64,000 bases of DNA. It comes from Oxalobacteraceae bacterium GrIS 1.11. Lineage in GTDB: Bacteria; Pseudomonadota; Gammaproteobacteria; Burkholderiales; Burkholderiaceae_D. Below are positions 21,193 through 62,336 of the stretch, piece after piece (positions within the stretch are counted from its first letter, which is position 1; each line of letters begins with the position of its first letter). Location: assembly GCA_040544385.1 (NCBI GenBank), contig JBEONR010000025.1, positions 30,883 to 94,882 of the forward strand, in the 5' to 3' direction. A program made the translations under genes and the position numbers. The notes beneath the pieces were generated by a model. The model was not told where the DNA came from and did not search any database. It was given only the letters and a program-made list of their open reading frames with translations.

Positions 21193-21201
21193 CCTTATTG
21201 C

Positions 21202-47404: not shown

Positions 47405-47410
47405 GTTTGC

Positions 47411-48083: not shown

Positions 48084-48097
48084 GTGTGACATCTTAC

Positions 48098-48122
48098 ATC
48101 AAATTAGACCAGTCGTCTAGTT
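48098..48122. promoter_or_regulatory. Second copy of the TAGAC-N5-GTCTA palindrome, upstream of tetR (autoregulatory operator candidate)
   Basis: AAATTAGACcagtcGTCTAGttc. Confidence 0.45.
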
Positions 48123-48199
48123 CGCTTGAAATCGTCTTTTGCGGGGCATGGAATGCTTGTGGCCAGCGGCGCCGATTGATTTTCGCTGGCGCCAATCGA

Positions 48200-48769: not shown

Positions 48770-48935
48770 TGCCGATACTCGATAAATTTGGCCGCTTGGC
48801 GGCATGGTCGGCGGGAATTGTACCGTACCCGGCGGCGTGCTCTGTTGCCGGTCCCGCTGGCAGCGCCGTGACTTGTTCATTCGAAAAAAAGCCACCCCAT
48901 ATCGGCGTGGCCTTATGTACACCCGCGTAGCGGCA

Positions 48936-49718
48936 TCAATCGCGGCGCGGATTGTCCGGGTGGCGGTCCAGGCGGTTCGGCACGCCGTCGCCGTCGCGGT
49001 CGTGATCCATGCGGTTCGGCACGCCATCGCCATCGCGGTCGTGCTCGCGGCGGTTCGGTACGCCATCACCGTCGCGGTCATGGCGGTTCGGTACGCCATC
49101 ACCGTCGCGGTCATGGTCGCGGCGGTTCGGGATGCCGTCATGGTCCTGGTCGCGGCGGCCGTCGCGCGGCGACCAGCGGCTCGGTTCCATATACCAGCGG
49201 CCATCGCGCTGGGCCCAACTGCTGTGGCTGTACACATAACCGGGACGCTCGGCGATCCACACGCCCGGCACCCAATCGTGACCCTGGCCGCGCCATTCCC
49301 AATGCCCGCCTTCCCAGATGTAACCGGCGCGCGGACTCGGCATGCGCTCATGGCGCGGCGGCGGCGGGGCCACCTGGACGTACTCCTGGCGCGGCGCCTG
49401 CGGCTCGGCGACAATCCAGCCGCCACGGTTCAAGCGCCACTGATCATGGTCGCGCACCCATTCGGCGGGCTGGTAACGGGCATCGCTGCGCTCCGTCTCC
49501 CAGCGGCCGGCGGCCCAGACGTGGCGCCCGCCCTCCCAATTCCAGTATCCTGGTGCCCAGACATAGCCGCGCCGCGCTTGTGGCACGCTTTCAAATCTTG
49601 GCGGGGGTGGGGCGTTGCCGATGACAATATTCAGGCCGACTTGGGCCACCGCGAAGGTCGGCATGAAAGCGGCCGAGCTGAGGGCGATCAGTGTTGCTGC
49701 GTAGAAGTTCGGTTTCAT
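48936..49718 (-). CDS. Secreted repeat protein: signal peptide, WxxGxW (YxWxxGxW) repeats and C-terminal Asp-rich calcium-binding (thrombospondin type-3-like) repeats
   Basis: MKPNFYAATLIALSSAAFMPTFAVAQ is the signal peptide. GYVWAPGYWNWEGGRHVWAAGRW-type repeats occur three times. There are five copies of DHDRDGDGVPNRxD. Confidence 0.7.
   Translation of the reverse strand: MKPNFYAATLIALSSAAFMPTFAVAQVGLNIVIGNAPPPPRFESVPQARRGYVWAPGYWNWEGGRHVWAAGRWETERSDARYQPAEWVRDHDQWRLNRGGWIVAEPQAPRQEYVQVAPPPPRHERMPSPRAGYIWEGGHWEWRGQGHDWVPGVWIAERPGYVYSHSSWAQRDGRWYMEPSRWSPRDGRRDQDHDGIPNRRDHDRDGDGVPNRHDRDGDGVPNRREHDRDGDGVPNRMDHDRDGDGVPNRLDRHPDNPRRD
48950..49140 (-). repeat. ~45-bp tandem DNA repeats encoding the DxDxDGxxxN calcium-binding units
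   Basis: ggcggttcggcacgccgtcgccgtcgcggtcgtgatccatgc-like units are repeated about four times. Confidence 0.7.
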
Positions 49719-49862
49719 TTTGTGTCTCCATTTCGCTATTGCGTGAAATGGACTATAACGGGGTGTCGGCAAGTTTTATTTAATTGATGCAACTCTTTAC
49801 AATTGACACACTATTCGCACAGCTGGGCGTGCGCTGGCGCACCGACGACGCGCCGGGCCCGC

Positions 49863-50099
49863 TCAAAACTTGCTGCCGGAGGCACCCAACAACGCTTGCT
49901 GGTGTTCCTGGCGTTCCTGGGCCAGCGACTGGGCTTTTTCTTGCTCCGTCATGCGTTTCGCGCTGGTCACCACGACTTGCATTGCTGGCGCGTCGGCGGT
50001 GGCGGGATCAGGCGTGCGGGCCAGGCTGACATAGGCGACCGAGCAAGCCAGGGCCACGGCTACGGTGAAAATGATTTCCATGTTTTTTAGCGCTTGCAT
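49863..50099 (-). CDS. Small hypothetical membrane-anchored protein (78 aa)
   Basis: MQALKNMEIIFTVAVALACSVAYVSLA… has one TM helix. The upstream extension of ORF 49863..50636 is discarded. Confidence 0.35.
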   Translation of the reverse strand: MQALKNMEIIFTVAVALACSVAYVSLARTPDPATADAPAMQVVVTSAKRMTEQEKAQSLAQERQEHQQALLGASGSKF

Positions 50100-50294
50100 G
50101 ATATTTCCTTGGTGGGTTGGTATGACTCCACTGTAAGGGCGCGCCGTTCGCGCCGCCAGGCGATTGCGACAAGGGGCCGTTTGGGCGGGATAAAGCGCAT
50201 AAATCGGCACCCAAGCGGGACCCGCCTTGGCGCCGCCCTCCGCTAAGCCTGGGCAGGGCGCCGACGCGCGCCCACCCATGCTAGCGAGGGGCCG

Positions 50295-53200
50295 ATGGCA
50301 AGCCGTATCCAGATCATGTTGCAAGCGTTGGCGCGGGGTTGGCGCCAGCGTCGCCGGGCCGCCAATGTGCGCGCCGGCGCGCCGCGCCGCGCCGCGATTG
50401 CGCGCGGCCCCGCATCCAGGCTGGCGCTGGCCGGCGTGCTGGCCGGCATCGGCGGCGCCGCGCTCATCGGCGGTCACGCACGCCACCTGGGCGCGCAAAC
50501 CATGGGTGCCGACCTGCGCATCCTGAGCGCTTATCAGGCGCTCTTGCCGGGACTGGCCTTCGAGGTGCCGTCGCACAGCGGATTGACGCTGACGCCGCAC
50601 GCCGGCGCGGCGCTGCTGATCGCGGCCGGCATGCAAGCTGCCAGGCCGGTACTGCTCGACTTATGCAGCCAGTTGGCGCAGCCGTCCCAGCCGCGCCTGT
50701 CGTCTTTGCGGCTCGGCTACCGCTTTGACGACGTGCGGCGCTGGGTCGCGCGGGCCCAGGCCGGCACCACGCCACTGGCCTTGCGCAATGTCCTATTGCT
50801 GCGCGAAGACGACGCCGCCATGCCCGAAGTGCAGATCAGCGGCATGGCGCGGGCCGATTTCAATGATCCCGACAGCGCGCCCCTGCAACTGGAATGGCAT
50901 GCGGCGCAAGGCACGGCGCGCTGGGTCAGCGACGCCAGCCTGGGCCAGATCGTCGAAGCGTCCAGCGCGCAAGTGAACTTGCGCCGGCAAGGCTGGTTGT
51001 TGTGGGGCGCCGGCGCCGCGCTGCGCATCGAGCGCCGCACCAGCGCCGCCTGTGCGCAAGCGGGCGAATTGGTGCTGCAAATGTATCGCCTGGCGCCGGC
51101 GCCAGCGCTGGCCGCCAGGGCCCTGGTGACGGTCTTCCCCGCGCACGGCAATCCGCTCGGCGCCTATCTGGCTGCCGGCGCATACCAGGTGCCGGCCGCG
51201 CCGCGCGCCGTCCTGGAAGACCAGGCCTTGTTTCGCGACTTGCAAGCGCGCCGCTTGCTGCGCCTTGGCGCCGACGGCCGCATCGAGACGGCGCCGCGCG
51301 ATTTGGCGCAGTGGCTGGCGGCAGACGCCGGCGCACGGGCGGTCGAACTGTCTGGCTGGAAGGATGTGCGGCTTGACGCCGGCGCCGTGAAATTGCTCAA
51401 GCGCCTCTACCACCAGGCCGACGGCGCCTATGTGCGCCAGCAAATCGACATCTTCAACGACGAATTGCGCTTGCTTGCGTGGCGCGTCAAAGCGGCCGCG
51501 CCGCAGCACTGGCAGGCCAGCGCCGGCGAGGCAGGGATGCCGCTGGCGCTGGGCGAGCAGATGCCGCCGGCCGCCGCGCGCCTGTTCGCCGACTTGGCGC
51601 AAGGCTGGGCGCCGTGGCAGCGCCTGGTCGGCCGGGCCGGGGCGGGCGCGCCAACGCGCCTGCGTCTGGACCTGGCGCGGCCGGCGGCCGGCGGCGAGCG
51701 CTATGAATTGATGTTGATCGGCCGCCCGGGCGGCGTGGTCGGCGCCCGCTTGAACGCGCAAGCGGCCTGCAGCGGGCGCGCCTGTCCGGCCCCGGACGCG
51801 GTCCAAACCCTGCTCTTGACGGCGCTGCCGGGCGCGCGCGCCGTGACCATCGACGTGCAAGCGCTCGACATGGCCAGCCTGGCCGGGCGCAACGATCAGC
51901 AATACCGCCATCTGCGCCTGCGCGACGGCCAATTGGTCTGGCAAGCTATCGATGGCGGCGCCGCGCCGCTCAAGGGTCGGGCGGGGCCGCCGTCGCCGGT
52001 GCTGCTGCGCGACCGCAACGGCGCGCTATTATGGGCTGACGGCCAGCCGAGCCAAGCCGCCCGGGACGCGGGTCTGGCGCCGCTTTTGGGCCTGGGGCCG
52101 CAGCATGCCAATAGCGTGGCCGGCATGCTGGCGCGCTTGCCGCGCCCGGCCGAAGGGCGCCTCACGCTCGACCTGGCGCTGCAAACGCTGAGCCAGCGCG
52201 TGCTCGATTGCATCGGCATGCGGCGCGGCCGCTGGGATGGCAAGGTTTGCATTGGCGGGCGCGCTGGCCCGGATGGACGGCATGCCGGCCTGGTATTTCT
52301 GGACGCGGAAAACGGCGACGTGCTGGCTGCCGCCGGCGCTGGCATGGGCCTGGTCGATGGCGCCAACTGGAACGAAGTGCGCGACTTCGACCAGAGCAAT
52401 CCGGCCCGCAGCCCCCTGCGCCTGCCGGCCTTCCAGCACGATGGCGGCATCCACCAAAGCCCCGGCTCGACTTTCAAGATCATCAGCGCGCTGGGCCTGG
52501 AAATGGCGGCCAGGAGCGACCCCCGCATCGACGCGCTGCTCGATGGCATGCCGCTGGCGGCGATCAATACCATGGCGCGTCAGCGTGGCTTCGCCTTCCA
52601 GACCGAATCGGCCACTTATCCCAGCGACAGCGGCCTGGCCCACATCACCAATTATAAGGAGCAAAGCCTGGACCGGCGCGCGCTGGACGGCCGCCTGGGA
52701 CTAGCGCAAGCGCTCAGCTACAGCCTCAATACCTGGTTCGCGTGGAGCGCCGAATTAAGCGACGCCAGCCTGTTCGGTCGTCCCGCCGGCGGCGCGCCGG
52801 ACTTGCAGGAACTCGAACCCGGCGCGCTCGACGCGGTGCGCCCCATCGTCGCGGCCGCGCACTTGCTCGGCTTCGAGCGCGCGCTGCGCCTGGACGGCGG
52901 CTTGCTGCCGGCCGATTTCAGCTGGTCCGCGTGGGACGCGCTGCAAACGACGCCGGCCCACATCGACACCATCCATACGCGCCACGAGTTGCGCCAGATG
53001 GCAATCGGCTTGCGCATGCAAGCCACGCCGCTGCAAATGGCGCTGGCCGCCGCCAGCATCGGCCAGGGCAAGGTGGTGACGCCGCGCCTGTTGCTGGCCC
53101 TGGATGGCGTCAACGGCGCGGCGCCCTCCATGCCCGCGCTCGACATCCGGCTCGACCGCATCCGCTCCGGCATGAAGGGCGTGATCGAGGTCGGCACCGG

Positions 53201-53492
53201 CGCGACGGCTTTTGCCGGCCCGGCGCTGGTCGGCGTGCGGCGCGGCTTGTACGGCAAGACCGGCACCGCGCCGAGCGGCGTGGCGCTGGCCGATGGCGCG
53301 CGGCGCGAACTGGCCACGGTCTGGTTCACCGGCTGGCTCGAGCCGGGCACGCTGCCGGGCCAACAGCACCGGATCGCGGTGGCGGTCTTTGTCAGCCATT
53401 CGGATGCGAGCGGCGGCGAACACGCGGCGCCCGTAGTGGCGGCAGTGCTGACCCAATTGGCCGGCCGGAACGTGGAACAGAGGCTGAAATAG
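50295..53492 (+). CDS. Membrane-anchored protein with a large unknown periplasmic region and a C-terminal penicillin-binding-protein-type transpeptidase domain
   Basis: N-terminal TM helix LALAGVLAGIGGAALIGG. The C-terminal third has the SxxK (STFK), SxN (YSLNT) and KTG (YGKTGTA) motifs in canonical order. An SD (GAGGGG) precedes the ATG. Confidence 0.7.
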   Translation: MASRIQIMLQALARGWRQRRRAANVRAGAPRRAAIARGPASRLALAGVLAGIGGAALIGGHARHLGAQTMGADLRILSAYQALLPGLAFEVPSHSGLTLTPHAGAALLIAAGMQAARPVLLDLCSQLAQPSQPRLSSLRLGYRFDDVRRWVARAQAGTTPLALRNVLLLREDDAAMPEVQISGMARADFNDPDSAPLQLEWHAAQGTARWVSDASLGQIVEASSAQVNLRRQGWLLWGAGAALRIERRTSAACAQAGELVLQMYRLAPAPALAARALVTVFPAHGNPLGAYLAAGAYQVPAAPRAVLEDQALFRDLQARRLLRLGADGRIETAPRDLAQWLAADAGARAVELSGWKDVRLDAGAVKLLKRLYHQADGAYVRQQIDIFNDELRLLAWRVKAAAPQHWQASAGEAGMPLALGEQMPPAAARLFADLAQGWAPWQRLVGRAGAGAPTRLRLDLARPAAGGERYELMLIGRPGGVVGARLNAQAACSGRACPAPDAVQTLLLTALPGARAVTIDVQALDMASLAGRNDQQYRHLRLRDGQLVWQAIDGGAAPLKGRAGPPSPVLLRDRNGALLWADGQPSQAARDAGLAPLLGLGPQHANSVAGMLARLPRPAEGRLTLDLALQTLSQRVLDCIGMRRGRWDGKVCIGGRAGPDGRHAGLVFLDAENGDVLAAAGAGMGLVDGANWNEVRDFDQSNPARSPLRLPAFQHDGGIHQSPGSTFKIISALGLEMAARSDPRIDALLDGMPLAAINTMARQRGFAFQTESATYPSDSGLAHITNYKEQSLDRRALDGRLGLAQALSYSLNTWFAWSAELSDASLFGRPAGGAPDLQELEPGALDAVRPIVAAAHLLGFERALRLDGGLLPADFSWSAWDALQTTPAHIDTIHTRHELRQMAIGLRMQATPLQMALAAASIGQGKVVTPRLLLALDGVNGAAPSMPALDIRLDRIRSGMKGVIEVGTGATAFAGPALVGVRRGLYGKTGTAPSGVALADGARRELATVWFTGWLEPGTLPGQQHRIAVAVFVSHSDASGGEHAAPVVAAVLTQLAGRNVEQRLK

Positions 53493-53530
53493 CCTTCTCC
53501 AGCGGGCTATGGCCGGCGCCCGTCCGTGGC

Positions 53531-54910
53531 ATGATTTTCACGCGTCCGCCGCCGTTCCCGCATCCGCGCGCGGCCAGGCGGACGCGTTGTCATGGATGGG
53601 AATGTATGCGCTTGCCGGGAACCAGGTATCAGGAGCCGGGCTGGGAGCAGGTGCGCAAGCTGCTGGGCCAGTGCTCGCTGCTGGCATTCAAGGGCTGCCA
53701 GATGCCAGCCTTGCCGGCGGCGGCGCTGCTCGACTGGTATTGCGACGCGCTGGCGCCAGCCTTGCTGGATGCGGCCGCGACGGCGCGCGGCGCGGCCGCC
53801 GGCAACAGCTATGGCGAAAGCGTGGCCGAATTGGCGCTGGGCCTGGTGTACGAATTGCGCGCTCAGCCCGGATATTGGGATGGCTTCGTGGCGGCGCTGC
53901 AGAAGCCGGGCGGGGCGCCTTGGCGCGGCGCCGATGCCATCTTGCGCAAGCAAGTCAACGATCTGTACGCCGGCTTGCGCGACAAGGTCGACTCCGACAA
54001 TTACCAGGTTGCGCTAGGCCGGGCTTGTTCGCCCAACAAGATGTACACTTACCGCATGCTCGACACGGCTTACCGCGAAATCGCGGCACTATTTTTGAAC
54101 TGGCGCCAGCATGCGGCGCAGGTAGCGGCGATACTGGGTCGGGCGTCGGCCGGCACCCCCATCGAGGCCCGGCAATTGCGCTCGGTGGCCCACTGCAAGC
54201 CGGAATGGGTGATACGCTGGAGCGCCACGCAAGAACAATTCACCGGTTCGCCCGGTCCGCTGCACACCAAGTCGAAGCGTTTCGCCAGTCTGAAAAACAA
54301 TGCGGCCACGATTGCCGCGATGATGGCCGAGATTGGCGACTATGAGGAACTGTCGTCCAATCTCGACCAGGCCGACGCGTGGCAGGGCGAGGCCGGGGCG
54401 GCCGCGCTGTGGCTGGAAGACTATTGGCGCGTGATGGGCGAGCCGGAAGATGAAACGGACGTGGACGACCGCATCTTGGCGGCGCCGGCCGAGCAATTCG
54501 ACACCGACGCGCAGACCGGGGATGAGGACCAGGCGGAGGACGGCGACCCGGTTGCGTTGACGTTTTCTGCTTCGCAAATTGCCCGCGACGAGGCGGCCGC
54601 CAGCGGCGTTTGCCTGTCCCCCCGCTATATTGAATTGGCAACGGCGGCGCAAGACGGCGCCAGTTGGGCACTGCAATTGCTCAAGGATGACACGCTGGCG
54701 ATCCGCTTGTCGGTCTACCAGAAAATCCTTGGTGGCGCCGACGACAGTTATCCCGAGGCCTGGCGCGACCCGGCCACGGGCGCGTTGCCGACGCTGCAGC
54801 AACTGGCGGCGCTGGACGGGATTTCGCTGCCGACCTTGCGCAAGCGGCGCGAGCTGGCCATCGCCAGGCTGCAGGCGGCGAATGGGACCCAATCAAGGAG
54901 AATACTGTGA
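53531..54910 (+). CDS. Hypothetical acidic protein with a C-terminal sigma-70 region-4-like HTH. The start is uncertain: 53531 or 53606.
   Basis: Strong GC3 bias in the frame of ORF 52742..54910 downstream of the previous stop. The C-terminus LPTLQQLAALDGISLPTLRKRRELAIARLQAA resembles sigma-70 region 4.2. It has an acidic stretch EDETDVDD…DEDQAEDGD. Confidence 0.5.
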   Translation: MIFTRPPPFPHPRAARRTRCHGWECMRLPGTRYQEPGWEQVRKLLGQCSLLAFKGCQMPALPAAALLDWYCDALAPALLDAAATARGAAAGNSYGESVAELALGLVYELRAQPGYWDGFVAALQKPGGAPWRGADAILRKQVNDLYAGLRDKVDSDNYQVALGRACSPNKMYTYRMLDTAYREIAALFLNWRQHAAQVAAILGRASAGTPIEARQLRSVAHCKPEWVIRWSATQEQFTGSPGPLHTKSKRFASLKNNAATIAAMMAEIGDYEELSSNLDQADAWQGEAGAAALWLEDYWRVMGEPEDETDVDDRILAAPAEQFDTDAQTGDEDQAEDGDPVALTFSASQIARDEAAASGVCLSPRYIELATAAQDGASWALQLLKDDTLAIRLSVYQKILGGADDSYPEAWRDPATGALPTLQQLAALDGISLPTLRKRRELAIARLQAANGTQSRRIL

Positions 54911-55488
54911 ACATACAGAGCGACCCGCAAGAACTCGATCGCAAGCTGCGCGAGCGCCTGTTGCTGGGCCGCGCCGTGGTGGGCGACCGCCTGATGCTGG
55001 CCGACGCCACGCTGCTGGCCGCCCTCGACGGCGCGCGCGCGCTGACGGCCAACGAGCGGGGCGCGCTGGAACGCTCGCCTTTGACCTTGCGGCGCTTTCG
55101 CCACCTGTCGGCGCAGCGGCGCCGCGCGGCAAGCAGCCCAAGCAGCCCGACCGCCTGGAGCGGCAGCGTCGGCATGCTGCGGGCCGCCGCCGACGGCGCC
55201 GCGCTGGCCGAACTGCGCACCGACGACGGCTGCTGGAGTCTGCATTTCGTGGAACAGGGAACGGCTTGGCGCGTCATCCTGGCGCTGGCGGCCGGGGCGC
55301 CGTTCGCGCCGCGCCTGATGCGCGAACAGCCGATGCTGCGTGTGCTCGATGGCGGCGGCGCCGTCCTCTTGCAGGGTCGGCTGGACGCGGACGGCGAATG
55401 CGAATGCGCCTGGCCCTTCGAGAGTGCGCCGGGGCCGCACTTGCAGTCGCGCGGCGCCCGTTTCGCGGTCGAAGCGCTGGCGCCTTGA
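54907..55488 (+). CDS. Hypothetical protein (GTG start overlapping the previous stop; SD AAGGAGA)
   Basis: 193 aa. Translationally coupled, with consistent codon bias. Confidence 0.5.
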   Translation: MNIQSDPQELDRKLRERLLLGRAVVGDRLMLADATLLAALDGARALTANERGALERSPLTLRRFRHLSAQRRRAASSPSSPTAWSGSVGMLRAAADGAALAELRTDDGCWSLHFVEQGTAWRVILALAAGAPFAPRLMREQPMLRVLDGGGAVLLQGRLDADGECECAWPFESAPGPHLQSRGARFAVEALAP

Positions 55489-55490
55489 GC

Positions 55491-56540
55491 ATGGGCCTGT
55501 TCAAGAGGCGTGCGCGGCGCACGGCGCCCGACTGCGCGGCGCTCGGCGTCAGCCTGATCGCGCTGCGGCTCGATAATGGCGACGCGGCGCCGGCCGGCGC
55601 CACGCTGGTCTTGTTCGACGCAGCTGGGCGCGCGCGCCGCAGCGCGGCCGGCCGCGTCAAGCTGGCCGACGGCGAGGCCGCCCATTGCTTCCATCCGGGT
55701 CCCTATGGCATCGACCTGGTCCCGTTCGCGGCCGCTCCCGAATTGGGCTTGCGCCTGCGCTTTGCCGTCGACGCGGCCGATCCGCGCGTGAGCCAGCAGC
55801 GTTTCGACTTGTATCTGCTGAGCGAAGCGGGCGCGCGTCTGCGCCTGGACGATTTTGGCACGGCCATGCAGGCGGCGCTGCAACTGGAACTGGCGCAGGG
55901 AAATATGGAACTGCCGCCTTGCACCACGAGCGCGGAATGGGATGTCTTTCGCGCCGGCTTGAACCGCTTGCTGTACATGCGCTTCGGCGTCACGGTCGAC
56001 GATTGCGTGCCCATTGAGCTGGTCGGCGTCGATTTCGCGCGCATGCTGGAAGCGCGCGCGCAAGCGGTTGCGGCGGCGCCAGCGCCAGGCGCGCTGCCCA
56101 TGCTGGAGGCGCAGCCACCCCCAGCAGACGACGCCAGGTCGCTGCGGCGCCTGTTCCTGGAATTGCCGGCCGCCACAGGCGCGCTGCGCCTGATCGCGCT
56201 GCCGCCAGGCCAGGAATGGTTCCAGGCCCGGCAGCGCCTGTTGCGCCGGCTTGAGCTGGCCAGCCTTGGCGTATGTACCATGCCGGCGCTGGAATGGGTC
56301 GCGCCCGGGCAGCGTCTGGATGCCTGCCAGCAGGCGCGCCGCGCGGGCGCCAGCGCGGGCGCCGTGCGTGCGCTGGACGAAGCCTGGGCCTTGCTGGCGC
56401 GTTTCCAGTGCGCCGTGCCGCAGCCCTTGCCGCTGTTGGACGAAGCCGAGCGCATCTGCGCCAACCTTGAACACAGTCTGGCCCAGCGCCGCGCGCCGTT
56501 CGCGCCGTTGCGGCAGGACGAGCGCGGGGAGTCGTCATGA
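55491..56540 (+). CDS. Hypothetical protein
   Basis: 349 aa in the frame of ORF 54579..56540, starting at MGLFKRRARR 2 nt after the previous stop. Confidence 0.5.
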   Translation: MGLFKRRARRTAPDCAALGVSLIALRLDNGDAAPAGATLVLFDAAGRARRSAAGRVKLADGEAAHCFHPGPYGIDLVPFAAAPELGLRLRFAVDAADPRVSQQRFDLYLLSEAGARLRLDDFGTAMQAALQLELAQGNMELPPCTTSAEWDVFRAGLNRLLYMRFGVTVDDCVPIELVGVDFARMLEARAQAVAAAPAPGALPMLEAQPPPADDARSLRRLFLELPAATGALRLIALPPGQEWFQARQRLLRRLELASLGVCTMPALEWVAPGQRLDACQQARRAGASAGAVRALDEAWALLARFQCAVPQPLPLLDEAERICANLEHSLAQRRAPFAPLRQDERGESS

Positions 56541-57589
56541 GCAATCTGCCCGATAGCGCGCAGTGCCGCTGCATCCTGGCCGATGGCCGGCTGCTGACCG
56601 TGACGGCGACGCGGCGCCCGCGCGCCAACCGGGCCGACGTCAAATGCGTGCTGCCCGGCGCGCCGGCCTTGTGCGAACGGATGCAGGAAGTGGTACGCCT
56701 GGCGCGCCACACCGAGGCGCGCCTGGACAGCCGCGAGCAGGTGGTGCTGAGCATGGATATCGCGCCGCAGCCGGGAGAGCGTAACTGGGAACTGGCGGCC
56801 GTGCTGGCCGACCGCATGGTGCGCGGTCTATACCGGGCCGCGCACGGCGTCGTGTATGCGCGCGGCTGGTCCGACGCCTGGCACCTGGGCCAGGTCTGCG
56901 GCCAGCCGTTGGCGCCCGGCGTGCGCGTGGCGTCTTTGGCCGCTTGTTTCATCCAGGGCGGGGCTGATGCTGGCGAAGGGGGTAATTGCCTGTACCTGAC
57001 GCACCTGGGCAGCTTGCATGGGCACACCGACCCGGCGGCGGCCGTGTCGAGCGCGCGCGCCTGGTTTCCGCTGCATAGCGGCGGCATCCACGACAGCCTG
57101 GCCTGGGTCGAGGTGAGCGTGCATCCGCTGGCCGCCGGCGCGCCAGAGGACGATGAGGAAAACACCATCGCCGCGCCTGGCCTCGACTTGACGGCGCAAC
57201 TGGCGCTGCGCCAGGCGCTGGTCGGCGCGCGCCACTTCGACGGCCGCGCGCTGGGGCGCTGGCGCACGGTGGTGCGCTTCGGCCAGCCGCGCTTCCAGGG
57301 CACCTCCTACGAGTTGGCCTTGGTGCTGGCCGACCGTCTGGCGCGCGGGCGCGAGTACCTGCCGCGCGGGCGCGTGATCGCCAGCGGCTGCTCCGGCGCC
57401 TGGCATGCGGGCCGGGTCGACGCGGTTGACGGGCGCGGGCCGAAGCTGGACTTGATACTGGCCCAGGTCGGTCCTGGCGACCGGGTCTTGCTGCCGACGG
57501 CGTGGCAAGACGGCCAGGGCGCTTTCGCCGATGGCGTCAAGGCGCGCGGCGCCTCGCTGGCGTGGATCGGGCAGATCGGCCTGCCTTGA
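56537..57589 (+). CDS. Hypothetical protein with an internal duplication
   Basis: ATGA overlap with the previous gene. The two halves share …WELAAVLADRMVRGLY… and …YELALVLADRLARGREY…. Confidence 0.5.
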   Translation: MSNLPDSAQCRCILADGRLLTVTATRRPRANRADVKCVLPGAPALCERMQEVVRLARHTEARLDSREQVVLSMDIAPQPGERNWELAAVLADRMVRGLYRAAHGVVYARGWSDAWHLGQVCGQPLAPGVRVASLAACFIQGGADAGEGGNCLYLTHLGSLHGHTDPAAAVSSARAWFPLHSGGIHDSLAWVEVSVHPLAAGAPEDDEENTIAAPGLDLTAQLALRQALVGARHFDGRALGRWRTVVRFGQPRFQGTSYELALVLADRLARGREYLPRGRVIASGCSGAWHAGRVDAVDGRGPKLDLILAQVGPGDRVLLPTAWQDGQGAFADGVKARGASLAWIGQIGLP

Positions 57590-57748
57590 GGCGGGCGCAG
57601 GCTTGGACAAGTCGAGCGCGGCTCACGTGCGCATTGCTGTATCGGCGGCGGCCCTGCCGGCAGCCTGAAGGATTCGTAGCCGATTTCCTTTAAGTCCGGC
57701 AGGCTGCTAGAATCGGCGGGGCGCACAAGAATTGATGAGGAGTCGGAT

Positions 57749-60055
57749 ATGTTCCAGATGTTTGGTTTTGGCGGCGTCAAATGTCCCCGTTGCGAGCATA
57801 AGAACGCGGCCGCGTCGGGCTATTGCGCCCAGTGCGGCGTGATCTTGGGCGCGCCGCGCAACGAGCCGGTGCTGCGCGAGAACCGCTGGCAGCCGGCGGC
57901 CGACGAGCTGGCCGTGTTTTTCGGCGTGCGTGAATTGTCCGGCATCTTCACCAAGACCTTGCGGGTGCCGGTTGCCAGCCGCGCCTATATCCTGCAGGGC
58001 CAGCAAGCCACCGAAGTGCCGCAGGGCGAATATGAAATCGAAGGCTTTTTTAGCCGCCTGAATCACTTGCTGCGCGACGGCCACGCCGAAATCCTGATCA
58101 CGCGCATGGCGGCGCTGCCGGTCGAATTCGAGTTCGCCGACCTGGCCAGCGCCGAGCATTTGCAGATATCGGCCCGCTTCACGGTCAGCGTCAAGATCGA
58201 GCAGGTGAGCGCGTTCGCGCAGCACTTCATGACGGCGCCGGGCAGCGTGACGAGCGCTCAGGTGCGCGACTTGCTGGCGCCATCGGTGCGCCAGATTGCC
58301 GCCGAATTCGTCGGCGCTCGCTCGCTGCGCGACATGGCTGGCAACCCTGATCTGCGTGTGCAACTCGACGAGCGCCTGCAGGCGGCGTTGAGAATGCGCC
58401 TGGCCCAGTATGGCTTGGCGGTGGTGCAAGTGGACACGCTGGCGCTGCGGCACGATAAATTCGACGCCAACCGCGCCCGCCTCGGCACCCTGTGGCTGGT
58501 GGTCGACGAGCGCCACGCGCAACTGGAGCACGTCAAGCAGCTCGACCAATTGTACGACGAGCAGGAATGGCAAGCCATCTGGCGCGAAGAGCAAGCCATG
58601 CAGCTCGCTTCCCGGCGCGCCCAGTTGCGCCAGGACGCCACCATTGACAAGGCCGAGCTGGCGCAGCAGGAGGGCGAGCGGGCGCAGGCGATCCGCGCGC
58701 GCCGGGTCGATCTGTATGGCCGCATCATGGAATCGCAGTCGCGCCAGCAAGCCCTCGAGCGCGGCGCCGGTGCCACCCTGGCCGAGCTGGAGCACGAACT
58801 GGAACATGATTTGGCCAGGCGCGACGCGCAGCGTGCCGACGCCGCCGGCGAATGGCAGCATGTGCGGGCGCTGGCCAGCATCAAGATGCGCACCGAGCTG
58901 GAATTGTCGCAACAGGCCGGGCGCGAGCAAATGCAATTGGCGCAACAGCGTTTTTCCCACCAATTGCACTTGCAACAGATCGACAACCAGATCGCCCAGG
59001 CGGTGGCGATCGAGGATGAAGCGGCGCGCCGCGCGCAATTGACGCGGCTGCGCCAAAGCCAGGCCGAGTCGGCCCAGCGCGAGGCGCAGATGGAGCGCGA
59101 GCAGCATCAGGCGCGCTGGCAGGGCGCCGCCATCGAGAACGCGGCCCGCAAGCGCGAAGCCGAGCGGGTGCAGGAATGGCAGGACCAGTTGCAACTGAAC
59201 CAGCAGCGCGATCTGCTGCGCGCCGATAAGGTCAAGGAAGGCGCGGCGCAAACCGAGGCGGCCCAGGTGCGCGAAAACATCGCGGCGCTGCAGCGGGCCG
59301 GGGCGCAGTCGGATGCCATCGCCCAGCATGAAAAACTGCTGCGCACGATCGAGGCCGACGCCATCCAGGCGCGCCAGATCCAGAAAAACCTGCATCAGGC
59401 CGGTCTCGACCAGCTCGATCTCGACGAACAGCGCCAGATCCTCACCCAGCAAGAGCAGGAAAGCCAGTGGCAGCGCCAGTTGCAGGCGCTGGCGCACGCG
59501 CGCGAGCAGGATTACGCGCGCTGGAAGGGCGAATACGATATGCTGACGGCGCGCCAGGCGCACGGCGCCGCACTGGCGCGCATCGAGATCGAGCGCATCG
59601 CCACCATCGGCCAATTGAGCGACACCGGCAAGGTGGCGCTGGCCGAGGCACCCAACGCGCTGGCGCTGGCGCAGATTATGCGCACCCAGGTACAGGCCGG
59701 CATGAGCGCCGAGCAAATCCACGCGCTGGCGGCGGTGGCGGCGGCCGAAAACAGCATCGCGCCGCTGGACGCGATCCGCATGGCGCACGAGCGCGTGCTG
59801 GAAGAGCGGGCCCACATGGAAGCGCAGGCCGACAAGGACCGGCGCCACCAGCTCGACTTGATCGCGCTGCAAAACCAGGCCCATAGTCACGCCCTGTCGG
59901 CGCAGGCGCAATTGGGCGTGGGCGTGGCGCAGGCCGGCGCGACTGTACACCACCACCACGGGGCGGCCTGCTGCGCCAACGGCCATGCGGCGCGCCCCGG
60001 CCACGCGAACGACAAATTTTGCGCTGAATGCGGCGCGCCGATGCCAGGCCGATGA
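57749..60055 (+). CDS. Zinc-ribbon / SPFH(flotillin)-like / long coiled-coil / zinc-ribbon protein
   Basis: N-terminal CPRCEHKN…CAQCG. A ~200-aa globular region is followed by a ~450-aa Ala/Glu/Gln/Arg-rich coiled coil, as in flotillins. C-terminal HHHHGAACCANGH…CAECGAP. Confidence 0.6.
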   Translation: MFQMFGFGGVKCPRCEHKNAAASGYCAQCGVILGAPRNEPVLRENRWQPAADELAVFFGVRELSGIFTKTLRVPVASRAYILQGQQATEVPQGEYEIEGFFSRLNHLLRDGHAEILITRMAALPVEFEFADLASAEHLQISARFTVSVKIEQVSAFAQHFMTAPGSVTSAQVRDLLAPSVRQIAAEFVGARSLRDMAGNPDLRVQLDERLQAALRMRLAQYGLAVVQVDTLALRHDKFDANRARLGTLWLVVDERHAQLEHVKQLDQLYDEQEWQAIWREEQAMQLASRRAQLRQDATIDKAELAQQEGERAQAIRARRVDLYGRIMESQSRQQALERGAGATLAELEHELEHDLARRDAQRADAAGEWQHVRALASIKMRTELELSQQAGREQMQLAQQRFSHQLHLQQIDNQIAQAVAIEDEAARRAQLTRLRQSQAESAQREAQMEREQHQARWQGAAIENAARKREAERVQEWQDQLQLNQQRDLLRADKVKEGAAQTEAAQVRENIAALQRAGAQSDAIAQHEKLLRTIEADAIQARQIQKNLHQAGLDQLDLDEQRQILTQQEQESQWQRQLQALAHAREQDYARWKGEYDMLTARQAHGAALARIEIERIATIGQLSDTGKVALAEAPNALALAQIMRTQVQAGMSAEQIHALAAVAAAENSIAPLDAIRMAHERVLEERAHMEAQADKDRRHQLDLIALQNQAHSHALSAQAQLGVGVAQAGATVHHHHGAACCANGHAARPGHANDKFCAECGAPMPGR

Positions 60056-60074
60056 AAGCGCCAACTAGCCTCAG

Positions 60075-62336
60075 ATGATGCAAACCGCACGAGATAAAAT
60101 CCGCGAATTGCGCGCCCTGCACGACGATGGCTTGCTCAGCTTGCAGGAATTCGACCACCGCAAGAACGCCATCCTCGACGCCGCGTATGCGCCACCCCTT
60201 GCGCCCCTTGCGCGCCAGGGCACCGAACTGGGGTTGATGGCCGGCCAGGAAATCGGCCCGCAAAACCGGCGCTACCGGCTCGAACGCCTGATTGCGCTGG
60301 GCGGCATGGGCCAGGTGTGGCAAGCCACCGACCTGGCCACCCACGCGGAACTGGGCAGCAGCGAGATGGTGGCGCTGAAAATCCTGCCGCCGCAATTGAC
60401 CCAGAGCGCGACCCACGCCAAGCTGCTGATCGAGGAGGCGACCCAGGCCCGCAAGCTGGCGCACGAACATATCGTGCGGGTCTACGAATGGGCGCAAGAC
60501 CCGGCCACGTCCAGTTATTTCATCATCATGGAATGCCTGGAAGGCGAGGATCTCGACCATTACCTGAGCGCGCACGGGCCGCTGGCGCCGGACACCGTGC
60601 AGCAATTGCTGCGGCCGGTGGCCGACGCGCTGCAATACGCCTGGGACAAGCACAAGCTGGTACACCGCGACATCAAGCCGGGCAATGTCTTCCTGACGGC
60701 CAAGGGCGAGATCAAGCTGCTCGATTTCGGCATTGCTTCGCGCGTGCGCAACGCCGGCAGCAGCCTGGGCCTGCAGACGCCGAATGCCGGCACCACCGGT
60801 TACCGGGCGCCGGAAGCGGGCACCCATCAGCGCCAACCGAGTCCGCGCCTGGACGTCTACGCGCTTGCCGTGATGATTTACCAGATGTTGGAAGGCAAAA
60901 TGCCGTTTGACGATAGCCGCGTCGCCGGCCAGTTGCCGCCGGCACCGGCCGCGCTGAACGCGGCCCAGTGGCAGGCGCTGCAAAACGGCTTTTCGATGGC
61001 GCCGGAATTGCGCCCGCCGTCCGCGCTGGCGCTGCTGGACGGTTTGCTGCGCGCGGCCGGACCGTCCGAGCAAGAACTGGCCGAATTGGCGCAACAGGGG
61101 CGTGCGCGCGAAGAGCAGCGGCGCCGCGAATTGGCGGCCGGGGCCGAGCAAGCGCGCCTGCTCGAGCAGCAGCGCCAGGAACGGCAGGCGGCCCAGCGCA
61201 AGGCCGAGGCGCAGGCGGCGGCGCTCGAAAAACAACGCCTCGACGTCATCCGCAAGCAGCAGGAAGCCGTGCTGCACGCCGAAGCCGAGACGGCCCGCAA
61301 GGCGCGCAAGGAAACGCTGCGCGAACAATTGCGGATGCGGCGCGAAGCCGACGCCACCAAGGCCATGCAGGAGCAGCAAGAGCAGCAGCGCAAGGCCTTG
61401 CAACTGAAGGCCGAGGCGGCCTATCGGCACGAGCAGGAACGGGCCCGCAAGGACTTGGCCAGCCGCGCCGCCGCCGAACTGGCGCAGCAATTACCGACTG
61501 CGGGCAGTCCGGTGGCCGACGCCGACGGCGTGCTGCGCGACCGCTTCCTCGACGGCAGCGGGCGCGGGCCGGAACTGGTCTTGATTCCGACCGGGCGCTT
61601 TCAGATGGGTTCCCCCGAGCATGAGCGCAAGATCGCGATGGCGGCCGGCTCGCAGCAAACCTGGCTGGAGCGTGAAACGCCGCAGCACTGGGTCGGCATC
61701 GAGTCTTCCTTCGCGCTGGGGCGGCACCCGGTCAGCGTCGGCCAATGGCGCCAGTTCGCGCGTGCCACCGGCTGGCAATCGCATGCCGAGACAGACTGGG
61801 AGCAGCCCGGTTTCAGTCAGGACGACGAGCATCCGGTGGTCGGCGTGAGCTGGAACGACGTCCAATTGTACCTGCGCTGGCTGATCGCGCAGACCGGCCA
61901 ACGGTATCGCCTGCCCAGCGAGGCGGAGTGGGAATATGCCTGCCGCGCCGGCACCAAGACCGCCTTCAGCTTCGGCGACCGGATTAGCACCGATCACGCC
62001 AATTACGACGGCCATTACACTTACCATGGCAGCGCGCGCGGCTTGTACCGGGGCGGCACCAGCCGGGCCGGCACCTTCCAGCCCAATCCCTGGGGCTTGT
62101 ACGATATGCACGGCAATGTGTGGGAATGGGTGCAAGACGTGGTGCACGACAATTACGCGGGCGCGCCGACCGACGGTAGCGCGTGGGAAGAGGGCGGCGA
62201 CGCCAGCCGCCGCATCTTGCGCGGCGGCTCCTGGTTATACAATCCGCGTTATCTGCGCGCGGCCCTGCGCAACGGCTTTTCTGCGGTGCTCAGCAACGAC
62301 ATCGTCGGCTTCCGCGTGGCGCGCAATCTGGCATGA
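60075..62336 (+). CDS. Ser/Thr protein kinase fused to a C-terminal FGE-sulfatase (SUMF1/formylglycine-generating-enzyme-like) domain via a coiled-coil linker
   Basis: Kinase motifs VALKIL, HRDIKPGNVFL, DFGIA and GTTGYRAPE. C-terminal FGE-domain motifs …RLPSEAEWEYACRAG…, …HGNVWEWV…, RGGSW and GFRVAR. Confidence 0.85.
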   Translation: MMQTARDKIRELRALHDDGLLSLQEFDHRKNAILDAAYAPPLAPLARQGTELGLMAGQEIGPQNRRYRLERLIALGGMGQVWQATDLATHAELGSSEMVALKILPPQLTQSATHAKLLIEEATQARKLAHEHIVRVYEWAQDPATSSYFIIMECLEGEDLDHYLSAHGPLAPDTVQQLLRPVADALQYAWDKHKLVHRDIKPGNVFLTAKGEIKLLDFGIASRVRNAGSSLGLQTPNAGTTGYRAPEAGTHQRQPSPRLDVYALAVMIYQMLEGKMPFDDSRVAGQLPPAPAALNAAQWQALQNGFSMAPELRPPSALALLDGLLRAAGPSEQELAELAQQGRAREEQRRRELAAGAEQARLLEQQRQERQAAQRKAEAQAAALEKQRLDVIRKQQEAVLHAEAETARKARKETLREQLRMRREADATKAMQEQQEQQRKALQLKAEAAYRHEQERARKDLASRAAAELAQQLPTAGSPVADADGVLRDRFLDGSGRGPELVLIPTGRFQMGSPEHERKIAMAAGSQQTWLERETPQHWVGIESSFALGRHPVSVGQWRQFARATGWQSHAETDWEQPGFSQDDEHPVVGVSWNDVQLYLRWLIAQTGQRYRLPSEAEWEYACRAGTKTAFSFGDRISTDHANYDGHYTYHGSARGLYRGGTSRAGTFQPNPWGLYDMHGNVWEWVQDVVHDNYAGAPTDGSAWEEGGDASRRILRGGSWLYNPRYLRAALRNGFSAVLSNDIVGFRVARNLA

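Follow-up and report, generated by a model that had tools for sequence, protein, structure and literature searches.

The question raised by this locus is whether a run of seven closely spaced genes, four of whose products had been described as unassignable, forms a genuine unit and what such a unit might do. The window, a 64,000-nt stretch of DNA from Oxalobacteraceae bacterium GrIS 1.11 (GCA_040544385.1, contig JBEONR010000025.1, positions 30,883-94,882 of the forward strand), carries the genes, here termed g1 to g7, at positions 50295-62336 of the window, all co-directional on the plus strand. The features considered, with coordinates in the window, are as follows.

49089..49718, minus: u2, 210 aa, secreted protein with WXXGXW repeats, conserved beside the cassette and divergent from it
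49863..50099, minus: u1, small membrane protein, 78 aa, one N-terminal hydrophobic segment, divergent from g1
50100..50294, no strand: spacer between the divergent u1 and g1, containing conserved non-coding blocks, e.g. CCCTCCGCTAAG at 50236
50295..53492, plus: g1, bitopic membrane protein, 1065 aa, Pfam Transpeptidase, one TM segment
53606..54910, plus: g2, 434 aa, helical N-domain, linker and HTH
54907..55488, plus: g3, orphan, 193 aa, helical N-half and beta-rich C-half, start overlapping the g2 stop codon
55491..56540, plus: g4, orphan, 349 aa, partner of g5
56537..57589, plus: g5, tandem Lon-protease-fold protein, 350 aa
57705..57713, plus: TGCTAGAAT, conserved extended -10-like element, 36 nt before the start codon of g6
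57749..60055, plus: g6, 768 aa, zinc ribbon, SPFH/Band-7, coiled coil of ~480 aa and C-terminal zinc ribbon, no TM segment
60075..62336, plus: g7, SHOCT (7-34), Hanks Ser/Thr kinase (68-283), charged coiled region (~331-495) and FGE-sulfatase fold (498-750) by Pfam, no TM segment

Organisation and conservation of the cassette

A check of the window sequence placed all seven ORFs at these coordinates on the plus strand, and genes called independently on a Logan contig were the same seven. The near-zero spacings given in a preliminary description were recovered for g2-g3 (-4, GTGA), g3-g4 (+2), g4-g5 (-4, ATGA), g5-g6 (+159) and g6-g7 (+19), but not for g1-g2. An in-frame ATG at 53531, which would yield a 459-aa product and the +38 nt gap first reported, is ruled out by the orthologue N-termini; every orthologue opens with MRLPGTRYQ, so that g2 starts at the ATG at 53606 and the gap is +113 nt. 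Across loci the median gaps from g1-g2 to g6-g7 are 98, -4, +3, -4, 91 and 10 nt, and the spacing splits the cassette into three blocks, namely g1, g2 to g5, and g6 with g7. Genes g2, g3, g4 and g5 are translationally coupled, the 4-nt overlap of the g4 stop with the g5 start being present in 113 of 161 loci. Of 84 Oxalobacteraceae genome loci, 77-84 preserve the order and orientation of the genes, with every spanning locus co-linear, at protein identities of 50-85%, and the syntenic cassette occurs in Janthinobacterium, Duganella, Massilia, Rugamonas and Pseudoduganella; a collection with one genome per species yielded 216 matching stretches. A set of 80 metagenome loci gave the same picture, order being kept in all 36 that carry the seven genes and those genes present being contiguous and ordered in 77. 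This conservation is far beyond chance, and g1-g7 is a real cassette, strictly conserved as one unit in soil Oxalobacteraceae, in line with the co-location that had been proposed as a test.

Two conserved divergent genes that the preliminary description did not note, u1 and u2, lie upstream and usually accompany the seven. In 71/84 genome loci u2 lies on the minus strand upstream of g1, and u1 is present in 62/84; of the 36 complete metagenome loci, 28 have both on the minus strand. The u2 product matches Pfam WXXGXW (E 2.9e-12) and has an N-terminal hydrophobic segment at residues 7-25; that of u1, also called on the Logan contig, has one at residues 3-28 and no family match. Alignment of 61 orthologous u1-g1 spacers revealed several blocks at least 90% identical. 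Only g1, u1 and u2 face the envelope, no hydrophobic segment having been detected in g2-g7. The envelope-linked signalling suggested earlier is plausible. The window flanks carry housekeeping genes (CorA, RidA, pirin, OsmC), and relatives of the cassette were not found on plasmids, on phages or in 2.9 million viral contigs. No PADLOC model matched g1-g6, no match at all was found for g2-g5 in Pfam, NCBIfam, PADLOC or PHROGs, and the literature searched held no named system corresponding to the cassette, which agrees with the initial view that it is not one.

The products of the individual genes

The g1 product begins with a short Arg-rich cytoplasmic tail and a single hydrophobic segment (40-61); some 580 periplasmic residues without assignment come next, and a divergent PBP transpeptidase region (~660-1065), already recognised in the preliminary description, ends the protein. 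It matches Pfam Transpeptidase over residues 901-1052 (E 7.6e-16, 58.6 bits against a cutoff of 22.1), whereas its score against NCBIfam pbp2_mrdA (58.5 bits) falls well under the cutoff of 455, and no PDB sequence match was found. The triad STFK (S725), SLN (S810) and KTG (K988) is kept in 71/71 orthologues, and within the protein conservation is highest in the transpeptidase domain (0.72) and poor in the cytoplasmic tail (0.29). The sequence of g1 is that of a strongly diverged PBP in which the triad is intact.

The N-domain of g2 (1-255) is all-helical in the model, and comparison with solved structures gave no convincing match, which marks it as a predicted new all-helical domain. In the model an acidic disordered linker (~285-319) follows, and the C-terminal domain (~364-433) is helical and contains an HTH that has weak similarity to sigma region 4 and no Pfam sigma-factor match; the HTH noted previously thus has weak structural support. 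For g3 no family or PDB match was found save a weak Ig-domain match (E 0.08), and g3 homologues are present at every distant locus that reaches its position. The g4 product likewise has no family or PDB match and is an obligate partner of g5, natural g4-g5 fusions occurring in other lineages (P0196, and P0182 as judged by architecture). Of the four products held to be unassignable, g5 is the exception: it is a tandem Lon-like serine protease by fold and Ser-Lys pair, in which the first domain has no catalytic serine and the second keeps Ser257 and Lys303, both nearly invariant, and its protease activity is presumed. The Lon-like domains of RadA, ComM and BrxL are not proteases, and the Lon fold alone is therefore no proof of catalysis by g5, whose structural neighbours include BrxL and CalpL.

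The g5-g6 spacer is conserved in length (~90-100 nt) and contains TGnTAnAAT in 82 of 83 orthologous cases, the window copy being TGCTAGAAT. A generic promoter scan did not report this element, because it has no -35 match, and it is regarded as a candidate promoter for g6. The window copy of g6 gave only weak Zn-ribbon matches in Pfam, and orthologues exceed the thresholds for Band_7 (35.2 bits at locus L002, 39.1 bits at L147) and Band_7_1 (33.1 bits at L173). Cysteines C12, C15, C26, C29, C742, C758 and C761 are conserved, with CxxC pairs at both ends. The earlier reading holds, and g6 is a soluble SPFH/coiled-coil protein with a zinc ribbon at each end. The kinase-FGE organisation of g7 was also correctly described, but the N-terminal SHOCT domain was missed; at 0.91, no segment of the cassette is better conserved. 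The kinase motifs GxGxxG, VALK, HRD, DFG and APE are kept in ~74 orthologues, and the domain matches the PADLOC PD-T4-6 and MADS6 kinase models, which are generic kinase matches; the kinase lacks PASTA domains, and neither an FHA nor a PP2C partner accompanies it. The FGE domain, at 0.76, is also conserved and not diversifying. The last ~110 residues of g7 contain no Cys, and thus the FGE catalytic Cys pair is missing; the Hanks kinase is intact and the FGE-fold domain non-catalytic.

A five-gene core and its variable partners

What evolves as a unit is a g2-g6 core, hitherto undescribed, rather than the full set of seven; this core recurs in distant lineages at GC contents of 0.41-0.62 and at locus L092 stands alone without a variable partner. 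No g1 orthologues were found at loci outside the Oxalobacteraceae, and g1 is a lineage-specific addition to the core. The variable neighbour carries SHOCT each time, joined to a kinase, an FGE domain or both: SHOCT-kinase-FGE in the window and at L090, SHOCT-kinase at L096, L097 and L090, and SHOCT-FGE at L151, the partner at L085 being a stand-alone protein that matches the SHOCT-bearing N-terminus of g7. The kinase-FGE protein is thus one among several SHOCT-tagged variable partners. FtsH-like AAA-M41 protease genes adjoin the core at L085 and L090; nearby are an FtsW/RodA-like protein at L085 and a PBP, an M23 peptidase and an SLT lytic transglycosylase at L090. Comparison of the L090 PBP with g1 led to its rejection as an orthologue. 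At L092, L173 and L147 the core lies near no wall enzyme. Other neighbours of distant cores are Peptidase_C14 (caspase) genes, a caspase-FGE fusion, a NACHT/FtsK-like ATPase, AAA ATPases and a HipA toxin-antitoxin pair, and L092 adjoins a Tse2/Tsi2 toxin-immunity pair.

Possible functions of the module

SPFH proteins scaffold proteases, HflK/C with FtsH and stomatin with the Ser-Lys protease NfeD/STOPP (stomatin PH1511 with protease PH1510), and in the cassette an SPFH/Band-7 protein is likewise encoded with a protease; the Ser-Lys pair is common to NfeD and g5, and distant core loci also add an FtsH-like gene. This logic, in which scaffold controls protease, is the basis of the best explanation. 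However, NfeD is membrane-bound with a ClpP fold whereas g5 is soluble with a Lon fold, g6, which lacks a TM segment, carries a zinc ribbon at either end and a coiled coil of unusual length, and the cassette has three further obligate orphan proteins. CalpL is a Lon-fold protease that cuts its anti-sigma partner, so releasing a sigma factor. Compared with CalpL-CalpT-CalpS (Lon-fold protease, anti-sigma and ECF sigma; type III CRISPR), the cassette lacks a SAVED/CARF sensor and nearby cas genes, g5 comprises two Lon-like domains and nothing else, and g2 is not recognisable as an ECF sigma factor and has a 255-aa helical domain, while Calp systems lack the SPFH, kinase and PBP partners. BlaR1/BlaI and MecR1/MecI similarly have a penicillin-binding domain outside, a protease inside and an HTH protein as proposed proteolytic target, but BlaR1 unites sensor and zinc protease in one polypeptide, whereas here they are separate proteins of other folds (class-B-like PBP, Lon-like Ser-Lys) whose contact is only proposed. 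The actinobacterial FhaA/B-PstP-RodA-PbpA-PknA/B cluster also combines a Hanks kinase with a class-B-type PBP in one operon, but the cassette has no FHA, PP2C, SEDS or PASTA and its kinase is cytoplasmic. Like g6, the YdjI/YdjL-type Band_7_1 proteins of B. subtilis (PspA operon ydjFGHI) have a C-terminal zinc ribbon with SPFH (PMC11237479), although PspA, TPM and YdjG-like genes are absent here. The most frequent fusion partners of SHOCT are Band-7 proteins (PMC3581485), an association the cassette shares, but with SHOCT on the neighbouring kinase and not on the SPFH protein. Hanks kinases that end in an FGE-sulfatase domain, such as Chlamydia Pkn1 and proteins of the SHOCT-kinase-PG_binding-FGE architecture (PMC3581485), have the domain order of g7; they have been described singly, whereas g7 sits in a cassette and carries a charged coiled stretch instead of the peptidoglycan-binding domain.

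That the genes are neighbours by chance or history, with no joint function, is exceedingly improbable; nothing positive speaks for it and it is contradicted by the synteny across genera and in the complete metagenome loci, the conserved overlapping start and stop codons, the g4-g5 fusions and the recurrence of the core between differing flanks in lineages at GC contents of 0.41-0.74. The main rival, which must be taken seriously even if it is somewhat doubtful, is an immune or conflict system of the abortive-infection type, in which the FGE fold would sense an invader molecule and SHOCT would bring varying effectors (a kinase, caspase-like peptidases, ATPases) onto the SPFH/Lon-like core; once activated, the system would arrest or kill the cell by phosphorylation or proteolysis. 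The caspase, ATPase and toxin neighbours of distant cores, including the Tse2/Tsi2 pair, have this flavour, as do the Lon-fold neighbours of g5, BrxL of BREX and CalpL of type III CRISPR signalling, and the kinase matches to PADLOC models. NTP-dependent conflict systems likewise have a fixed core with an exchangeable adaptor-tagged partner (PMC7159879), and FGE-sulfatase domains, as in g7, are sensors in defence-associated STAND proteins (PMC13581612). Against this, g1-g6 are without PADLOC match and g7 matches only as a generic kinase, the presumed sensor is among the best conserved parts and not hypervariable, the flanks are housekeeping genes, and no relatives were found on plasmids, phages or viral contigs. 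Defence islands are, moreover, usually patchy, unlike the perfect synteny over five genera.

It is unlikely that the cassette is instead a machine for peptidoglycan synthesis or remodelling, with g1 an active transpeptidase in a particular growth state, positioned, phosphorylated and turned over by cytoplasmic scaffold, kinase and quality-control protease, and with no transcriptional output. The invariant g1 triad and well conserved transpeptidase domain, the wall enzymes at L085 and L090, the kinase beside a PBP recalling the actinobacterial cluster, and the secreted u2 and membrane protein u1 would all suit such a role, but it leaves the HTH-bearing core gene g2 unexplained, three core loci lie near no wall enzyme, the L090 PBP is not a g1 orthologue, no SEDS partner occurs in or beside the Oxalobacteraceae cassette, and the kinase has neither PASTA domains nor a TM segment.

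The reading tentatively preferred, held at somewhat less than even confidence, is that of an SPFH-scaffolded, Lon-like proteolytic signalling module, cytoplasmic and built on the g2-g6 core. It draws on the strict co-linearity, the spacing blocks and the element before g6; on the g5 fold and Ser-Lys pair, the g4-g5 fusions and the SPFH domain and zinc ribbons of g6; on the recurrence of the core, SHOCT on every variable partner and its conservation; on the FtsH-like genes at L085 and L090, which repeat the SPFH-protease theme; and on the g2 linker and HTH model, the intact kinase and PBP motifs, the conserved FGE domain and the lack of plasmid, phage or viral copies. Against it, no fold is assigned to g3 or g4, the core of other lineages lacks g1, the caspase-like, NACHT/FtsK-like and HipA neighbours suggest conflict rather than housekeeping signalling, and communication from g1 to the cytoplasm is left unexplained by a g7 without TM segment, FHA or PP2C and a g1 tail so poorly conserved. 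For this proteolytic module we infer protease activity, its substrate, the targets of phosphorylation and binding to DNA or RNAP. In the Oxalobacteraceae the core would have gained the periplasmic PBP g1 and the SHOCT-tagged kinase g7. Oligomerisation of g6 would form a scaffold or cage, like the SPFH proteins around FtsH and NfeD, on which g7 may dock through its SHOCT tag, a docking suggested by the usual fusion of SHOCT to Band-7 proteins. Binding of a ligand by the FGE-fold domain would control the kinase, and phosphorylation or rearrangement of the scaffold would switch on the g4/g5 protease, which might cut g3 or the g2 linker. Cleavage would free the sigma-region-4-like HTH of g2 and so change transcription, possibly at the divergent control region between u1 and g1. 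It may well be that g1, u1 and u2 tie the module to the status of the peptidoglycan or envelope, either as input or as regulated output.

Conservation of the cassette and its surroundings

The preliminary description placed seven coupled open reading frames on the plus strand at 50295-62336, and all seven are present there; an independent gene call on a Logan contig returned the identical set. For g2 and g5, NCBI proteins of the source strain, Oxalobacteraceae bacterium GrIS 1.11, show 100% identity. Spurious long ORFs are plentiful on both strands of this high-GC DNA, so it is on the basis of conservation that the seven are taken to be genes, designated here g1 (a divergent PBP), g2 (an HTH-bearing protein), g3 and g4 (orphan proteins), g5 (a tandem Lon-fold protein), g6 (an SPFH protein) and g7 (a kinase-FGE protein). 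The spacings of -4, +2, -4, +159 and +19 nt originally given for the later gene pairs were upheld, but that for the first pair was not: g2 (434 aa) starts at the ATG at 53606, with MRLPGTRYQ opening all orthologues, which makes the g1-g2 gap 113 nt and not 38.

A sample of 84 genome loci, fetched via the g5 protein, spans Janthinobacterium, Duganella, Massilia, Rugamonas, Pseudoduganella, Telluria and Burkholderiales MAGs, and there were 216 matching stretches in a collection holding one genome per species. When the window proteins were compared with the 84 loci by tblastn, g1 was found in 77, g2 in 78, g3 in 79, g4 in 83, g5 and g6 in all 84 and g7 in 81, at approximately 50-85% identity and with order and strand the same wherever the contig reaches. 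An independent metagenome scan yielded 80 further loci, 36 of which carry all seven genes, without exception in the order of the window, and in 77 of the 80 those genes that are present are contiguous and ordered. The gene-neighbourhood check put forward in the preliminary description thus found the seven genes co-located, with their order kept, across both sets of loci, and this synteny excludes chance adjacency. The cassette falls into three spacing blocks (g1 alone, g2 to g5, and g6 with g7), with median gaps from g1 to g7 of 98, -4, +3, -4, 91 and 10 nt (116-161 loci), and the g4 stop and g5 start overlap in 113/161 loci. The GC content of the cassette exceeded that of its flanks in 68/68 loci (0.686 compared with 0.651 on average), so the GC step in the window belongs to the gene family as such and does not indicate recent transfer. 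No homologues of the cassette were found in plasmids, phages or viral contigs and, the high GC being family-wide, an origin from a mobile element was rejected.

Two minus-strand genes lie upstream of g1 and diverge from the cassette, namely u1 (78 aa with one hydrophobic segment; 62/84 loci) and u2, which encodes a secreted WXXGXW-repeat protein (71/84 loci); both accompany the cassette in 28 of the 36 complete metagenome loci. Conservation stops beyond u1, u2 and the cassette, and neighbours farther away vary. A 327-aa plus-strand ORF at 48804-49787, with a weak ThrE_2 match, overlaps u2 (49089-49718) and is probably spurious, since it is the minus-strand reading that is conserved (WXXGXW E 2.9e-12, 71 loci). 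Just upstream of u2, at 45104-48871 on the plus strand, are three ORFs of 770, 228 and 261 aa coupled by start/stop overlaps, for which Pfam and PADLOC give no match; the first two recur ahead of the cassette at one other locus only, that of Janthinobacterium fluminis.

The spacer between u1 and g1 contains blocks of at least 90% identity. In the g5-g6 spacer, the length of which is conserved, an extended -10-like element, TGnTAnAAT, occurs in 82 of 83 cases, with a conserved GGAG-type ribosome-binding site downstream of it. The copy in the window is:

57705-57713, g5-g6 spacer: TGCTAGAAT, matching TGnTAnAAT

A generic scan for sigma-70 promoters and terminators gave a number of sites not above that in shuffled sequence, and no Rfam match at gathering thresholds was obtained for the 159-nt g5-g6 spacer or the rest of the cassette. 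Outside the cassette there is a 5_ureB_sRNA at 2374-2659 on the minus strand (128.9 bits, above the Rfam gathering score) and a Guanidine-II (mini-ykkC) riboswitch at 7361-7407 on the plus strand (32.2 bits, just at threshold). GC content falls to 0.51-0.56 at 20001-22000, 26001-28000 and 38001-40000, where the background is about 0.62, and these stretches may be islands of foreign DNA.

The predicted products

The assignment of g1 as a membrane protein with a PBP transpeptidase domain was borne out by one transmembrane segment (40-61) and a Pfam Transpeptidase match of 58.6 bits (cutoff 22.1). The SxxK/SxN/KTG triad takes the form STFK, SLN and KTG and is kept in 71/71 orthologues. Neither Pfam nor NCBIfam matched the PBP dimerisation domain (the N-terminal pedestal), and the score against NCBIfam pbp2_mrdA was 58.5 bits, where an equivalog-level assignment to PBP2/PBP3 has a cutoff of 455. 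No PBP of known structure in the PDB was matched by the family profile or by phmmer, because the transpeptidase domain is very divergent, and approximately 580 periplasmic residues match no family. A SEDS partner (RodA/FtsW) is absent from the window and from the Oxalobacteraceae loci, an FtsW/RodA-like protein being present only at the distant locus L085. A PBP encoded at another distant locus, L090, was considered as an orthologue of g1 and rejected, the g1 HMM not picking it up.

The second to fifth products had been listed as lacking an assignable motif, apart from an HTH at the end of the second. This no longer holds for g5, which proves to have a Lon fold, but g3 and g4 are still orphans. 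The model of g2 (pLDDT 81) has a confident, all-helical N-domain (residues 1-255), a disordered acidic linker (approximately 285-319) and a small helical C-domain with an HTH. Foldseek returned nothing significant for it, and 13 of the top 50 chains belong to the sigma-70 family, of which 12 are the full-length chain as present in an RNA polymerase holoenzyme; the C-terminal alignment gave only sub-threshold matches to assorted HTH families in Pfam. The sigma region 4-like HTH previously proposed for the end of g2 is thus weakly supported, and a wider sigma-like nature of the protein is only a lead. The single match for g3 was a weak Ig domain (E 0.08) in its beta-rich C-terminal half. For g4 no relatives were detected beyond its own family, its alignment and every individual member giving sub-threshold noise alone in Pfam, and the idea that it is an SPFH paralogue of g6, which came from a motif pattern seen by eye, was dropped when a profile-profile comparison gave a probability below 1%. 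Profiles of g1, g2, g3, g4 and g6 gave no usable matches to PDB sequences. No described family accommodates the g2 N-domain, g3 or g4, and for the first of these the solved structures offer no convincing match either.

The alignment of g5 showed that the protein is internally duplicated and has a motif similar to the active site of Lon. Archaeal Lon protease domains were the only PDB sequences matched by its profile, weakly, and the AlphaFold model, which is confident (pLDDT 92.6), has the fold of the Lon (MEROPS S16) proteolytic domain. Ser257 is kept in 360/361 homologues and Lys303 in 358/361, the most distant included, and in the model both lie at helix N-termini. The conserved Lys aligns with that of the archaeal Lon GGV.QK motif, in a segment that scores just 2.4 bits. 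Domain 1 is without the Ser, the corresponding position being variable. No AAA+ module of the LonA or LonB type was found in Pfam or NCBIfam, and the two Lon-like domains fill the 350 residues; g5 is therefore not a canonical Lon and resembles the ATPase-less Lon-fold proteins. It thus consists of a pseudo-protease domain and, after it, a probably active Ser-Lys protease domain. RadA, ComM and BrxL illustrate that a Lon-like fold can be non-catalytic. The family is a small one, with 119 related clusters in a search of 1.84 billion representative proteins, and in other lineages natural fusions of g4 to g5 occur, in the protein P0196 (736 aa) and, by architecture, in P0182 (700 aa).

The description of g6 as an SPFH-like domain and long coiled coil between zinc ribbons agrees with its four N-terminal and three C-terminal conserved Cys and its long coiled coil. 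The window copy has no Pfam SPFH match, but orthologues exceed the thresholds (L002, Band_7, 35.2 bits, cutoff 23.6; L147, 39.1 bits; L173, Band_7_1, 33.1 bits, cutoff 24), and these and the window copy form one family by HMM. There is no 19-residue window with a hydropathy of 1.6 or more that could represent a membrane anchor, and any membrane association must therefore be peripheral.

Both domains claimed for g7 were matched (Pkinase E 3.6e-41; PF03781 E 4.8e-57, full length 2-255/255). A short SHOCT domain (7-34) and a Hanks kinase come first, then a charged coiled region, with the full-length FGE-sulfatase fold at the C-terminus. The kinase motifs GGMGQV, VALK, HRDIKPGN, DFG and GYRAPE are kept in at least 70/74 orthologues. 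The label SUMF1-like is correct as to fold but not as to the catalytic Cys pair: the last ~110 residues contain no cysteine, so this is not a genuine FGE. The best NCBIfam relative of the C-terminus is PvdO, far below cutoff. That leaves a binding module, or an enzyme of some other kind. Among the 74 orthologues, SHOCT is the most conserved stretch of the cassette (0.91 identity to the window copy), and the FGE domain, at 0.76, is conserved rather than diversifying. Two assemblies of J. agaricidamnosum differ in their g7 orthologue: in L003 (13547-15826) there is a single 759-aa gene, whereas in L002 (13547-15825) the kinase (451 aa) and the FGE part (308 aa) are encoded by separate genes, which reflects either a sequencing frameshift or strain variation.

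The conserved core and its variable partners

Loci more distant than those of the Oxalobacteraceae have different contexts, as listed below.

Gene content of distant loci

L092 (GC 0.51): g2-g3-g4-g5-g6 only, flanked by Mla genes, prfB and lysS
L173 (GC 0.41): core order as in L092, contig-limited
L147 (GC 0.56): core order as in L092, contig-limited
L094 (GC 0.56): core order as in L092, contig-limited
L088 (GC 0.61): 646-aa protein, g3, g4-g5 fusion, shorter SPFH protein; nearby caspase-like peptidase, SH3 protein and AAA ATPase
L086 (GC 0.61): core with SH3, AAA, two caspase-like peptidases and OmpA
L085/L090 (GC 0.58/0.62): core with SHOCT-kinase-FGE, SHOCT-kinase and a stand-alone protein matching the SHOCT-bearing N-terminus of g7; also FtsK/NACHT-like ATPase, separate FGE protein and caspase-FGE fusion; on the opposite strand, FtsH-like AAA-M41 protease, FtsW/RodA-like protein, PBP, M23 peptidase and SLT transglycosylase
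L096/L097 (GC 0.57/0.55): SHOCT-kinase directly after g5
L151 (GC 0.61): SHOCT-FGE directly after g5

From these contexts it follows that the conserved evolutionary unit is the core g2-g6, that g1, u1 and u2 are an Oxalobacteraceae addition to it, and that what the variable partners have in common is SHOCT rather than a kinase or FGE domain. Band-7 (PF13421) proteins are reported to be the most frequent fusion partners of SHOCT, and a SHOCT-kinase-PG_binding-FGE architecture has already been noted (PMC3581485). Such fusions, and the fact that g6 and g7 are neighbours, suggest a docking role for SHOCT, by which partners would be brought to the SPFH protein.

Other features of the two richest loci may be recorded here. 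In L090 an inserted HTH-HipA toxin-antitoxin pair (14351-15951) separates g5 from the SHOCT-kinase gene. The ATPase (L085, 10711-13278; L090, 17340-19926) is of FtsK/SpoIIIE type, weakly NACHT-like, and is followed by two ~100-aa proteins without a family match; the arrangement resembles the ATPase-substrate pairs of type VII secretion and is absent from the window. The FtsH-like AAA-Peptidase_M41 protein (L085, 2181-5024; L090, 2625-5480; both minus strand) is divergent from the core and, at ~950 aa, unusually long, and its gene is flanked at each locus by conserved orphans of 177-185 aa and 212 aa.

The view that the cassette corresponds to no named system still holds. Searches of the literature for this combination of domains turned up no description, every homologue carries only the name "hypothetical protein", and PADLOC-DB 2.0 has no match for g1-g6, u1 or u2; the kinase domain of g7 hits the PD-T4-6 and mad6 models, which are generic for kinases. 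The cassette differs from Calp (CalpL/CalpT/CalpS) in having no SAVED/CARF cyclic-nucleotide sensor on the protease, none being found on g5 in Pfam or PADLOC and the model containing just the two Lon-like domains, and no type III CRISPR-Cas neighbourhood, with no cas families among the called genes of the inspected loci. At least one defining feature is missing for each of the others also, namely the SPFH-protease pairs, BlaR1/BlaI, the actinobacterial PknB-PBP cluster, the YdjI-type SPFH-zinc-ribbon proteins and the Pkn1-type kinase-FGE proteins. Each recognisable part lies in a known superfamily, and the systems and protein types compared are partial analogues.

A possible signalling machine and its significance

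SPFH proteins form oligomeric scaffolds by which proteases are controlled, as in the pairing of FtsH with HflK/C or of the Ser-Lys protease NfeD/STOPP with stomatin, and CalpL is a Lon-fold protease without an ATPase that cuts an anti-sigma partner and so frees a sigma factor. By analogy with these, the folds, the conservation of catalytic residues, the coupling of the genes, the fusions and the pattern of partners can be joined by functional links that we infer. In such a scheme g6 would act as scaffold for both the g4/g5 protease and the kinase g7, the latter docking through SHOCT and binding a ligand with its FGE-fold domain. Kinase activity or rearrangement of the scaffold would switch on the protease, which would then cut g3 or the acidic linker of g2, freeing the HTH module and eliciting a transcriptional response. 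In the Oxalobacteraceae, g1, u1 and u2 would tie the module to the cell wall, either as input or as regulated output. Taken as a whole, this SPFH-scaffolded, Lon-like protease signalling is the best supported of the readings but a tentative one, with somewhat less than an even chance of being right.

A bolder and rather doubtful extension is that g2-g6 constitutes a machine for bacterial signalling or immunity of a kind not recognised before. It would be a soluble SPFH/coiled-coil cage for which SHOCT serves as a universal docking adaptor, accepting interchangeable sensor and effector modules such as the kinase, the FGE-fold binder and possibly caspase-like peptidases and ATPases. Under the control of the cage, g4/g5 would work as a tandem Lon-like protease independent of ATP, and its substrate would be g2, taken as a sigma-like transcription factor of extreme divergence that g3 restrains. 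In that case SHOCT would gain its first defined function, and protease-gated sigma-type regulation would acquire a new branch outside CRISPR.

It is important to ask whether the cassette might rather be an immune or conflict system. The distant cores lie near caspase-like peptidases, a NACHT/FtsK-like ATPase and toxin-antitoxin and toxin-immunity genes, a core with swappable partners is a design described for NTP-dependent conflict systems (PMC7159879), and FGE domains act as sensors in defence STANDs (PMC13581612). However, inheritance is stably vertical with perfect synteny, the flanks are housekeeping, g1-g6 have no PADLOC match, plasmids, phages and viral contigs lack the cassette and the FGE domain is not diversifying, all of which makes an immune role unlikely. 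A dedicated machine for wall synthesis or remodelling, with g1 as its working enzyme, would accord with the intact PBP motifs and with the wall enzymes near L085 and L090, but the core occurs without any wall enzyme and the HTH protein g2 would be left without a role, so that this explanation appears improbable.

Should the scaffolded protease signalling prove to be true, there would be a testable role for SHOCT, a widespread domain, in the docking of partners onto SPFH scaffolds. SPFH-gated proteases and the Lon-fold release of sigma-type regulators would be extended to a setting with a PBP and a Hanks kinase. The cassette is fixed across a clade of bacteria abundant in soil and rhizosphere (Massilia, Duganella, Janthinobacterium, Rugamonas and Pseudoduganella), and it is therefore likely that it controls something important for them.
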